Positions 4,206 to 52,146 of a stretch of DNA of 64,000 bases are shown piece after piece. The DNA is taken from the sequence record PZ445432.1. The stretch is one strand, 5' to 3'. Under the pieces are notes generated by a model, which did no database searches, was not told where the DNA came from, and saw only the letters and a program-made list of their open reading frames with translations. Made by a program: the position numbers and the translations under genes. How positions within the stretch are numbered: position 1 is the first letter of the stretch; each line of letters starts with the position of its first letter. Source of the DNA: a phage.

Positions 4206-5582
4206 ATGACTATTGATATTAATAAGCTGAAAGAAGAACTTGGTCTGGGTGATCTGGCTAAATCTCTGGAAGGTCTGACCGCTGCTCAGAAAGCTCAGGA
4301 AGCTGAACGTATGCGTAAAGAGCAGGAAGAAAAAGAACTGGCTCGTATGAATGACCTGGTTTCTAAAGCAGTTGGCGAAGACCGTAAGCGTCTGGAAGAA
4401 GCTCTGGAACTGGTTAAATCCCTGGATGAAAAATCTAAGAAGAGCGCAGAACTGTTTGCACAGACTGTAGAAAAGCAGCAGGAAACCATCGTTGGTCTTC
4501 AGGACGAAATCAAGTCTCTGCTGGCAGCTCGCGAAGGTCGTTCCTTCGTTGGTGATAGTGTTGCTAAAGCACTGTACGGTACTCAGGAAGCCTTTGAAGA
4601 TGAAGTTGAAAAACTGGTTCTGTTATCTTATGTAATGGAAAAAGGCGTATTCGAAACTGAACATGGTCAGAATCACCTTAAAGCTGTAAACACCTCTTCT
4701 TCAGTTCAGGTTTCCAGTGAAAACTACGAAACTATTTTCTCCCAGCGTATTATTCGTGACCTGCAGAAAGAACTAGTAGTTGGTGCTCTGTTTGAAGAAC
4801 TGCCAATGTCCAGCAAAATTCTTACTATGCTGGTTGAACCAGATGCTGGTAAAGCTACTTGGGTAGATGCTTCTGCCTACGGTACTGACACTACTACTGG
4901 TGATGAAGTTAAAGGGGCTCTTAAAGAAATCCAGTTTAAAACATACAAACTGGCTGCTAAGTCCTTCATTACTGATGAAACTGAAGAAGATGCAATTTTC
5001 TCCCTGCTGCCTCTGCTGCGTAAGCGTCTGATTGAAGCACACGCTGTTTCTATCGAAGAAGCTTTCATGACTGGTGATGGTTCTGGTAAACCGAAAGGTC
5101 TGCTGAAACTGGCTGCTGATGATGGTGCTAAGGTTGTCACAGAAGCTAAAGCTGACGGTTCCGTAAAGGTAACTGCTAAGATTATCTCTAAACTGCGTCG
5201 TAAACTGGGCCGTCATGGTCTGAAACTGAGCAAGCTGGTACTGATTGTATCTATGGATGCTTACTACGATCTGCTGGAAGATGAAGAATGGCAGGATGTT
5301 GCACAGGTTGGTAACGATGCTGTTAAACTGCAGGGTCAGGTTGGTCGTATTTATGGTCTGCCGGTTGTAGTTTCCGAGTATTTCCCGACTAAAGCTACCT
5401 CAGCAGAGTTCGCAGTTATTGTTTATAAAGATAACTTCGTAATGCCGCGTCAGCGTGCTGTTACTGTTGAACGTGAGCGCCAAGCTGGTAAACAGCGTGA
5501 TGCATACTACGTTACTCAGCGTGTTAACCTGCAACGTTACTTTAATAATGGCGTTGTATCTGGTGCTTACGCTGCATCTTAA
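4206..5582 (+). CDS. major capsid protein with N-terminal scaffolding (delta) domain (pb8-like)
   Basis: 458-aa ORF; N-terminal ~150 aa coiled-coil rich in E/K/L typical of a fused scaffold; strong E. coli-type high-expression codon usage (CTG, CGT, GGT). Confidence 0.85.
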   Translation: MTIDINKLKEELGLGDLAKSLEGLTAAQKAQEAERMRKEQEEKELARMNDLVSKAVGEDRKRLEEALELVKSLDEKSKKSAELFAQTVEKQQETIVGLQDEIKSLLAAREGRSFVGDSVAKALYGTQEAFEDEVEKLVLLSYVMEKGVFETEHGQNHLKAVNTSSSVQVSSENYETIFSQRIIRDLQKELVVGALFEELPMSSKILTMLVEPDAGKATWVDASAYGTDTTTGDEVKGALKEIQFKTYKLAAKSFITDETEEDAIFSLLPLLRKRLIEAHAVSIEEAFMTGDGSGKPKGLLKLAADDGAKVVTEAKADGSVKVTAKIISKLRRKLGRHGLKLSKLVLIVSMDAYYDLLEDEEWQDVAQVGNDAVKLQGQVGRIYGLPVVVSEYFPTKATSAEFAVIVYKDNFVMPRQRAVTVERERQAGKQRDAYYVTQRVNLQRYFNNGVVSGAYAAS

Positions 5583-5595
5583 TATTGACTACTAT

Positions 5596-5615
5596 ACCCT
5601 CTCTTTTGAGAGGGT
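5596..5615 (+). terminator. hairpin after the capsid gene (accctctc-tttt-gagagggt)
   Basis: 8-bp stem read from sequence; weak U-tract. Confidence 0.4.
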
Positions 5616-5638
5616 ATACCATATGACAGTTCATTCAT

Positions 5639-5959
5639 ATGGTATACTTGTATGGGGGCTATCAAATGGCAGGAAAAGCGATACCTTATGAAATAAGGGA
5701 AAAGCAAATTCTAGAAATTTGCGAAAAAGAAGGATATGTATATAAAGGGGTGGTTGGTACCTTTAAGAATTCAGAATCCAAAATACTGATAGAATGCACT
5801 AAGGATGGTAATTGTTGGACTCCACGCATACGTAATTTTGTCAATACTGGTTCACGATGCCCAAAATGTTGTCAAACACGTTTTTTGAAGGCAAAAGAAA
5901 ATAAAGTAGTCTCTATAGAAGATACTCCTGCTATTTTTTTATATTCAAAGATTGACTAA
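5639..5959 (+). CDS. small Cys-rich protein (possible zinc ribbon); may be the 5' part of a frameshifted GIY-YIG-type endonuclease gene
   Basis: ECTKDGNCW ... CPKCC cysteine cluster; C-terminus AIFLYSKID resembles a GIY motif; overlaps the next ORF by 8 nt in another frame. Confidence 0.35.
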   Translation: MVYLYGGYQMAGKAIPYEIREKQILEICEKEGYVYKGVVGTFKNSESKILIECTKDGNCWTPRIRNFVNTGSRCPKCCQTRFLKAKENKVVSIEDTPAIFLYSKID

Positions 5960-6236
5960 CAATTATCACTCAGTTCTAAAATATGGAATAACTTCCCGAA
6001 ATATTGATGTTCGGATTAGAGAACAATCACGAGTATCAGCCTATACTCACGAACTACTCCTATCAGTGCAACTACCTTCTAGACAGGAGGCATTTATGTT
6101 AGAAGCCTTAGTAAAACAGGCTATTCCTTCTGGGTTTCTTACTCCTGCTCTTCTCCCTGATGGGTATACAGAAACCTGTCTTGAAAAATACCTGCCAGAG
6201 ATAAAACATATAGTTTATAATTATATGTTTTCCTAG
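5952..6236 (+). CDS. GIY-YIG-like fragment (YIG half)
   Basis: VLKYGITSRNIDVRIREQ resembles the YIG-T...R segment of GIY-YIG nucleases (compared from memory to I-TevI); begins in the +1 frame relative to 5639-5959. Confidence 0.35.
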   Translation: MTNNYHSVLKYGITSRNIDVRIREQSRVSAYTHELLLSVQLPSRQEAFMLEALVKQAIPSGFLTPALLPDGYTETCLEKYLPEIKHIVYNYMFS

Positions 6237-6248
6237 TAACGGCTCTTT

Positions 6249-6279
6249 AGCCGAAAGAGAGCTTCGGCTCTCTTTTTTA
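6249..6279 (+). terminator. rho-independent terminator (agccgaa-agagagc-ttcggct + T-run)
   Basis: stem-loop followed by TCTTTTTT; directly followed by the TATTGGAAAAATAAA box. Confidence 0.6.
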
Positions 6280-6291
6280 TTGGAAAAATAA

Positions 6292-6804
6292 ATGCAAATC
6301 ATCACTGTTGAAGACTACAGACTATATGCTAATGCAAAGCGACCTGATATGGAAACTCAGGTTGAGATGATGATTAAAGCTGCCAATACGCTGATCACAA
6401 GCCTTCTAGGTATGGATGATGCAGATGCGGTAGATCAATTAATCATTACAAAACCTAGCCGTAGGAAATATTTCCTGAGTTCTCCCGCAGCCACATCTAT
6501 TACAAAGATGACTATTAACGGGGATGAAATAGGCCCGGAACAGTTTAAATTGTACCCTGATGGTGTTATTCTTCTTAAATTTAATCCTCCTGAGGGATAT
6601 ATGGATGTAGAATATACCAAAGGTGGTTTCAATCCAATGCCTGAAGATCTTAAGCTGGCAGCATGCCTGTTAGTAGATCACTGGCATAAGCAAGATTATC
6701 GTCAAGCCAAGACTATTGGTGGGGAGACAATTACGTTTAATAGCACTAAGTCTGGTATTCCAGAGCATATTCGTACAATCGTCGAAGTATATAGGAGAGT
6801 ATAA
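6292..6804 (+). CDS. head completion / neck protein (p144-like)
   Basis: 170-aa ORF at the conserved position between the capsid and tail genes. Confidence 0.45.
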   Translation: MQIITVEDYRLYANAKRPDMETQVEMMIKAANTLITSLLGMDDADAVDQLIITKPSRRKYFLSSPAATSITKMTINGDEIGPEQFKLYPDGVILLKFNPPEGYMDVEYTKGGFNPMPEDLKLAACLLVDHWHKQDYRQAKTIGGETITFNSTKSGIPEHIRTIVEVYRRV

Positions 6805-51598: not shown

Positions 51599-51791
51599 AA
51601 AGTTTCTCCTCTAGTCCCATAATACGATTTTCATAAGAAGCACGCAACTTTTCAATTGCCAGCGCACGCACTGTAACCTCATTAGAATTAATAGCTAACT
51701 GGGCCAGATCTTCTGTTTCCATACGTCCGTTGTAAATTAAGCGATATTTAAGGTGTTTCACATTCTTGGTCATTATTAAACTCCACTGCAA
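51567..51791 (-). CDS. hypothetical small protein
   Basis: 74-aa ORF; the real start may be the internal Met (MTKNVKHL). Confidence 0.35.
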   Translation of the reverse strand: MQWSLIMTKNVKHLKYRLIYNGRMETEDLAQLAINSNEVTVRALAIEKLRASYENRIMGLEEKLYGLLESESKK

Positions 51792-52146
51792 CTGTTTCTA
51801 GGTCTTCGTCAAAAAAACTAGAGTATGTATCTTTAAGATACTGTTTAATACTCCAAGTAATATCTTCGTATCCATCTGGACTACGTTGGTATACTTTTAA
51901 CACTCTATTATACACAAATTCAAGATTACATTTTACTTCATCTCTGTCTTCATCAAACAAGCAATATGGGTTATATGGCGATACATCTAGATTTGTTTCC
52001 ACCCAATCACCAATAACGGTGGGGTATCCAGCACCATCTATATGAGAGTAATCACCTGTGGCAGCAAAGACAGCCTCAGCAATATCATCCACGCCCAGAT
52101 GGAAATCACCACATGTAGATTCAACTATATAGGGCTTTAATTCCAT
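51748..52146 (-). CDS. hypothetical acidic protein
   Basis: 132 aa; GAGGAG RBS within a promoter-leader cassette. Confidence 0.5.
   Translation of the reverse strand: MELKPYIVESTCGDFHLGVDDIAEAVFAATGDYSHIDGAGYPTVIGDWVETNLDVSPYNPYCLFDEDRDEVKCNLEFVYNRVLKVYQRSPDGYEDITWSIKQYLKDTYSSFFDEDLETVAVEFNNDQECETP

Follow-up and report, generated by a model that had tools for sequence, protein, structure and literature searches.

T5-like phages are rich in homing endonuclease genes (HEGs) that combine a CapR domain with a T5orf172 domain, 31% of which lie in the neighbourhood of capsid genes (Barth, Dunham & Seed 2023, PMC10448857). Their hallmarks include frequent frameshifts, variable stops and in-frame deletions (PMC10448857). 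The T5orf172 domain is classed within the GIY-YIG superfamily (PMC8096241), and among T5orf172 proteins Odn of phage ICP1 alone is cited as an active nuclease (PMC10448857). Here we describe a gene of this kind in a 64,000-nucleotide stretch of phage DNA from sequence record PZ445432.1 (hereafter the window), where it lies downstream of the major capsid gene and is split into two overlapping open reading frames (ORFs). A preliminary description, made from the letters of the DNA alone, had proposed that this pair is either a decaying homing endonuclease or a gene expressed by frameshifting. We favor, at a probability of roughly 0.77, the reading that the locus is the HEG cassette of a T5-like phage, recently disabled by one extra T and now an incipient pseudogene. 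The first proposal is thus borne out by single intact ORFs in the orthologues, by a +1 T lesion and by family-level evidence for a nuclease.

The gene resembles the CapR+T5orf172 HEGs of ICP1 and of T5-like, Aeromonas and Vibrio phages in its two-domain architecture, and shares with them a free-standing position beside essential structural genes (above all capsid genes), patchy presence and inactivation by frameshift. It is a minimal version, with one CapR domain and 189 amino acids, whereas many of these HEGs have 2-6 zinc-finger repeats and 300-600 amino acids. Its nuclease domain has diverged too far to pass the Pfam thresholds on its own; in addition, the His that usually serves as zinc ligand after the first Cys is replaced in its clade (C44-x5-C50). 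A paralogue, T5.141 of phage T5 (AY543070, 95777-96529) or bas32_0016 of phage IrisVonRoten, shows 36-38% identity, with about 90-98% of the query aligned, and is annotated as a hypothetical protein or putative homing endonuclease. The paralogue is longer (250-265 amino acids) and occupies a different locus, between tail genes T5.142-T5.144 and the tape-measure (pb2) gene, upstream of pb2; no T5.141-type copy was found in the window by tblastn. The Seg proteins, which are free-standing GIY-YIG homing endonucleases of T4, and the catalytic domain of I-TevI have no detectable sequence similarity to this gene, differ from it in their DNA-binding domain, and carry the motif G-I-Y ... Y-I-G in place of F-Y-I ... 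K-Y-G-I-T, which is followed here by an additional invariant PDGYTET. The zinc-finger DNA-binding domain is held in common with PLE CapR (Netter et al. 2021, PMC8096241), and in ICP1 Odn a T5orf172 domain is active as a nuclease once fused to a DNA-binding domain (PMC10448857). PLE CapR and Odn are domesticated proteins with established roles in phage-satellite conflict; the CapR fragment described here is the accident of a one-nucleotide insertion in one isolate.

The stretch corresponds to Escherichia phage HildyBeyeler (Bas33; Demerecviridae, Tequintavirus; T5-like), with 100% identity and 100% query coverage in a megablast search with positions 5400-6500. The phage is recorded as MZ501074 and its RefSeq duplicate NC_105119, and window positions equal those of MZ501074 minus 482. 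As the preliminary description had reported, two overlapping ORFs are present at 5639-5959 (106 amino acids, ending AIFLYSKID) and 5952-6236 (94 amino acids, with a TTG start followed by TNNYHSVLKYGITSRNIDVRIREQ), with the frame of the second offset by +1 from that of the first. The idea of joining them into one gene proved correct; the lesion is not at the overlap of the ORFs, as had been supposed, and lies a few codons away in a run of T residues at 5934-5940 on the plus strand. This run was the sole length difference in a three-way DNA alignment, with T7 in HildyBeyeler against T6 in phages TrudiRoth and phagemcphageface. More distant orthologues have TTTTCT (NR01, Tennessee) or ACTTTT (JLBYU43) at this position. 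A census of homopolymers found no other run of seven or more T residues in the window.

Removal of one T in silico produced an ORF of 570 nucleotides encoding 189 amino acids, with no other stop or indel and only four nucleotide and two amino acid differences from the TrudiRoth gene. The ancestral sequence across the junction reads ...EDTPAIFYIQRLTNNYHSVLKYGITSR... A GIY-like core at the junction had been proposed and is present, except that its "FLY" is not part of it: the ancestral motif is AIFYIQRL...KYGITSR, with F-Y-I in that place, and LYSKID is out-of-frame translation. Both halves of the split gene match adjacent segments of the PHROG profile phrog_681, "endonuclease" (positions 369-435, E 1e-17, and 449-537, E 1e-16), and the pair are therefore not chance ORFs. 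An intact orthologue matches the same profile over residues 9-186 (E 2e-43). The lesion is very recent, since there are no other stops or indels, the catalytic residues are still encoded, and only the four substitutions separate the gene from that of TrudiRoth.

The true start of the gene is almost certainly the ATG at 5666 (MAGKAIPYE), which is used by GenBank and by all orthologues, and not position 5639, where the first ORF had been taken to begin. The 5639 start was rejected; it has no Shine-Dalgarno sequence, overlaps a -10-like element and is unused in every orthologue. From ATG 5666, the translated remnant (plus strand, 5666-5959) comprises 97 amino acids, of which residues 1-91 are native and make up the CapR domain and linker; the last six, LYSKID, form an out-of-frame tail that ends at a stop. 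It is annotated as coding sequence (CDS) bas33_0008, "putative homing endonuclease". The nuclease domain, cut off from its start codon, is encoded in the +1 frame of the plus strand at 5937-6236 (ancestral residues 91-189, FYIQRL...KYGITS...R...E...PDGYTET) and ends with a TAG stop at 6234-6236. Two further CDSs are annotated as hypothetical proteins in this region, bas33_0009 (6007-6102, 31 amino acids, third frame) and bas33_0010 (6096-6236, 46 amino acids, the tail of the nuclease frame). Both are most likely gene-caller artefacts produced by the frameshift.

In related phages the locus is one uninterrupted ORF of 189-190 codons, as found in TrudiRoth, phagemcphageface, SA001, Tennessee, NR01 and JLBYU43; the Tennessee record annotates the ORF from an upstream start, with 199 codons. 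This comparison had been suggested in the preliminary description, and its outcome favors a single gene. Searching with the repaired protein by tblastn recovered 33 phage records, duplicates included, with an orthologue of at least 59% identity. The match was in one piece in 31 of the 33, and in two pieces only in HildyBeyeler and its RefSeq duplicate. Names given to the orthologues in their records are putative homing endonuclease, endonuclease, GIY-YIG nuclease family protein and hypothetical protein. No paralogue was detected when the window was searched with the repaired protein by tblastn.

The cluster of Cys residues noted earlier in the first ORF is explained by a CapR-type zinc-finger domain. 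Residues 11-68 match positions 2-66 of the 67 in the Pfam CapR profile (PF21817) at E 2e-9, with 37.9 bits against a cutoff of 24.2, and the N-terminal half also has a weak match to the treble-clef zinc-finger family DUF4379. Zinc ligands follow the pattern CxxC...CxC in PLE CapR and Cys-x2-3-His...CxxC in most aligned homologues. Three candidate ligands, C44, C65 and C68, are conserved in 115-121 of 143 homologues. The His that is usual among homologues corresponds to D47/G48 here, and C50 sits in an insertion and is an Arg in homologue P0002.

An exhaustive phmmer search of 1.84 billion representatives, with 5934-6236 translated in the +1 frame as the query, recovered 141 homologues of the C-terminal domain at E<=1e-3; a word-indexed protein search had given three close relatives only, and the farther ones required the exhaustive search. 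In nearly all 141 the homologous region is C-terminal and preceded by zinc-finger repeats that vary in number. Members of the family are scattered among T5-like, Aeromonas, Vibrio, Klebsiella and jumbo phages, and a genome often has several of them. When the 143 aligned members were scanned individually with Pfam, CapR was found in 91, MUG113 (PF13455) in 44 (best E 2.9e-7) and T5orf172 (PF10544) in 26 (best E 5.1e-7). The matches to the nuclease families begin where homology to the query begins, as in homologue P0013, in which residues 520-588 are matched and residues 521-616 align with the query. A homologue with 60% identity (P0004) reached T5orf172 and MUG113 only at E 0.037-0.053, with 14.5-15 bits against cutoffs of 20-22.

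Within this family, Y92 is found in all 140 homologues having a residue at that column, and K105, G107, R116, E146, G166, E169 and T170 are invariant across the 143. The shared pattern, [F/L]-Y-[IVL]-Q ... K-[F/Y]-G-I-T ... R ... E ... P-D-G-Y-T-E-T, is the form that the GIY...YIG...R...E core takes in T5orf172 proteins, and all of the invariant residues from Y92 to T170 are still encoded in the window in the +1 frame. They include the catalytic residues expected of GIY-YIG nucleases, namely the Tyr of motif 1, the Gly of motif 2, an Arg and a putative metal-binding Glu. The domain has the alpha/beta catalytic fold of the GIY-YIG type. No match for the nuclease domain was obtained in an NCBIfam search with the repaired protein or its C-terminal domain, in a PDB sequence search with the 143-sequence profile, or, at E<=0.001, in a Foldseek comparison of the two-domain model with the PDB. 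Collectively, the transitive Pfam matches of homologues and the modelled fold, together with the phrog_681 matches and the conserved residues, place the C-terminal domain within the GIY-YIG superfamily, in its T5orf172/MUG113 branch.

The cassette is present or absent at one precise site among collinear relatives, as is expected of HEGs. Carriers make up about 7% of T5-like records and are found across two genera, Tequintavirus and Epseptimavirus. In phage SB9, whose site is empty, the aligned sequence runs straight from the capsid TAA into the terminator hairpin. A synthetic empty-site query built from the window flanks matched 448 T5-like records, 437 of which cover at least 80% of the query. 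Among the matches listed, all genomes except HildyBeyeler, including T5 and DT57C, match in one piece of about 400 bp, and the empty site is clean in SB9, T5, DT57C and most of the 448 records. Such patchy presence is typical of a free-standing HEG.

Over most of its length the Tennessee gene shares about 96% identity with that of the window, and its last ~100 nucleotides, together with the start of the head-completion gene, are of the NR01 type (Tennessee segment ~1700-2000 against window 6140-6400). This switch in sequence type places a recombination junction within the Tennessee endonuclease gene or at its 3' end, in keeping with the published view of nuclease genes as markers of the boundaries of genetic exchange. 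Records labelled as Listeria phages LM 4-11-1 and LM 4-14-1 and Campylobacter phage C13, which are short or unannotated, contain T5-like sequence of 86-96% identity, and the two Listeria-labelled records include the endonuclease gene. Mislabelling or contaminant contigs are the probable explanation.

The ancestral product is a two-domain protein of 189 amino acids, with an N-terminal CapR-type zinc finger that would recognise DNA and a C-terminal T5orf172-type domain that would cut it. Other phage HEGs suggest how such a gene would spread: when two phages infect the same cell, the intact enzyme would bind near the empty junction through its CapR domain and, through its GIY-YIG-type domain, cleave the allele that lacks the HEG close to this site. 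The cut genome would be repaired by recombination with the genome that carries the HEG, and would acquire the cassette and flanking markers in the process. In HildyBeyeler, the extra T shifts the frame just before the first catalytic motif, and translation from ATG 5666 would yield only the 97-amino-acid DNA-binding fragment, with the nuclease domain absent barring rare slippage. On this evidence the disruption is a standard decay step in the HEG life cycle and not a regulated recoding device.

Several points qualify this interpretation. Searched against Pfam, neither the repaired protein nor the TrudiRoth orthologue nor the C-terminal 108 amino acids on their own matched T5orf172, MUG113 or GIY-YIG, even at E<=10, and the lack of a direct profile match for the joined sequence is an outcome that the preliminary description had itself named as counting against its proposal. 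Nuclease and homing activity, and the target site, are attributed to the gene by analogy with its family. Finally, among public assemblies the exact truncated protein was found in the GenBank record alone, and the extra T is thus seen in one deposited assembly. An exact-pattern scan of IMG/VR was uninformative: the T7 allele was absent and so was the T6 control, which indicates that this collection lacks close relatives.

With the truncated protein in no independent assembly, an error in sequencing or assembly of the consensus has to be considered, in which case the phage truly carries T6 and an intact gene of 189 amino acids. A one-nucleotide change in homopolymer length is the classic type of error, T7 is unique among the 33 records, and the remainder of the gene is pristine. 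Against this, the genome was obtained by Illumina NextSeq sequencing, typically at 50-100x, and assembled in Geneious (PMC8594841), and frameshifts in HEGs are common in nature (PMC10448857). We consider an error unlikely, while giving it some weight, and infer that the extra T is biological. Consensus indels at a homopolymer of seven nucleotides are rare with Illumina chemistry at such depth, which also counts against an error. If the extra T is genuine, the truncated ORF could have acquired a use of its own, with the 97-amino-acid CapR fragment selected as a nuclease-less DNA-binding regulator or as a protector of the target site beside the capsid gene. The truncated ORF does retain its start, Shine-Dalgarno sequence and complete CapR domain, and a precedent exists in PLE CapR, an HEG-derived domain that represses the ICP1 capsid operon (PMC8096241, PMC10448857). 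Truncation is nevertheless confined to one genome, with no second independent truncated allele among the orthologue records, and the intact nuclease-coding sequence downstream points to a very recent event that left no time for selection, making a selected fragment of this kind quite improbable.

Expression of the whole enzyme by frameshifting, the other proposal of the preliminary description, is not supported: the site is unconserved and lacks a stimulatory element. Under such recoding, useful full-length nuclease would be made from the T7 allele, either through tRNA-Phe slipping by +1 on U UUU UUA or through RNA polymerase slipping on the T7 tract and dropping one U, and the T7 run would act as an expression attenuator or phase switch. 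A +1 slip from UUU (5936-5938) to UUU (5937-5939) would restore exactly ...AIFYIQRL..., and homopolymeric A/T tracts give low-level transcriptional slippage in E. coli, both of which count in its favor. Efficient slippage, however, usually requires runs of about nine or more. Moreover, neither the two-frame layout nor the slippery run is conserved, T7 being confined to HildyBeyeler while the other phages have T6, TTTTCT or ACTTTT in a single frame. There is no GGAGG-like or other Shine-Dalgarno-like stimulator upstream of the run, and the 76 nucleotides around the site fold no better than shuffled sequences (-5.8 kcal/mol, z = -0.01), with no downstream structure predicted. We attach hardly any probability to recoding. 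More broadly, that the frameshift has biological meaning, whether by creating a stand-alone CapR-type protein as a first step in HEG domestication or as a T6/T7 slippage switch that tunes nuclease expression, is very unlikely. Decay of an HEG through a recent +1 T insertion remains the reading that we favor.

The complete inserted cassette comprises about 655 bp on the plus strand at 5583-6239, between the capsid TAA and a terminator shared with empty alleles, with boundaries that are ambiguous by 2-4 nucleotides. Around it lies a T5-type head/neck module, in the order portal, prohead protease, major capsid, the locus, head-completion, tail completion, tail terminator and tail tube. The major capsid protein gene occupies 4206-5582 on the plus strand, with its TAA stop at 5580-5582, and the head-completion gene 6292-6804 on the same strand.

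At the 5' end of the cassette, a perfect 11-bp hairpin without a T-tail, TATACCCTCTC-TTTT-GAGAGGGTATA, is located at 5593-5618 on the plus strand and folds at -20.7 kcal/mol (z = -4.8). The hairpin is also kept in the NR01 and JLBYU43 cassettes, with different stem sequences, and is possibly an element of capsid mRNA stability or processing, or part of cassette regulation. Its loop (5604-5607) is TTTT in HildyBeyeler and phagemcphageface and AAAA in TrudiRoth and Tennessee, with identical stems, and so looks flipped to its complement between otherwise near-identical cassettes. Downstream, an extended -10-like element, TGGTATACT, was read from the sequence and the cassette alignment at 5640-5648 on the plus strand. 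Its GTATACT is conserved in three diverged cassettes, and we infer a putative cassette promoter here; a simple sigma-70 scan called no promoter at 5640-5648. The Shine-Dalgarno-like GGGGG (plus strand, 5654-5658) lies 7 nucleotides upstream of ATG 5666, a start that is conserved in orthologues.

The 3' end of the cassette is followed by an intrinsic terminator of tandem hairpins and a T-run, identified by terminator scan at 6240-6282 on the plus strand (-19.5 kcal/mol, z = -3.5). The same terminator stands directly after the capsid gene in the empty allele and downstream of the cassette here. Relative to the empty SB9 allele, it has several differences, including a 2-nucleotide indel, in carriers of the HildyBeyeler/NR01 type, and JLBYU43, whose gene variant is 60% identical, has the SB9-type terminator. 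These differences could reflect target-site immunity or co-conversion tracts.

Elsewhere in the window, the only other homopolymer of at least seven nucleotides is an A7 run (as read on the plus strand) at 51811-51817, inside a small minus-strand gene at 51748-52146, which shares 44 nucleotides with the next small ORF. This run was dropped as a candidate for a second frameshift: a comparison at the level of annotations, in which the relatives FFH_1 and AKFV33 have three small hypothetical proteins there, gave no sign of one.

The kind of gene described here is already published and annotated; it is an ordinary HEG, and its fate by frameshift has been described before. The finding matters little beyond annotation, in that bas33_0008, bas33_0009 and bas33_0010 are one disrupted gene and belong under a single entry marked as a frameshifted pseudogene. 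To our knowledge, no cleavage site has been mapped for the CapR+T5orf172 endonucleases of T5-like phages. Bas33 belongs to the widely used BASEL collection, in which it provides a natural nuclease-null allele beside the isogenic-like, intact alleles of TrudiRoth (Bas30) and SelmaRatti. Together with these intact alleles, Bas33 could serve as a control for studies of homing and marker co-conversion by CapR+T5orf172 endonucleases.
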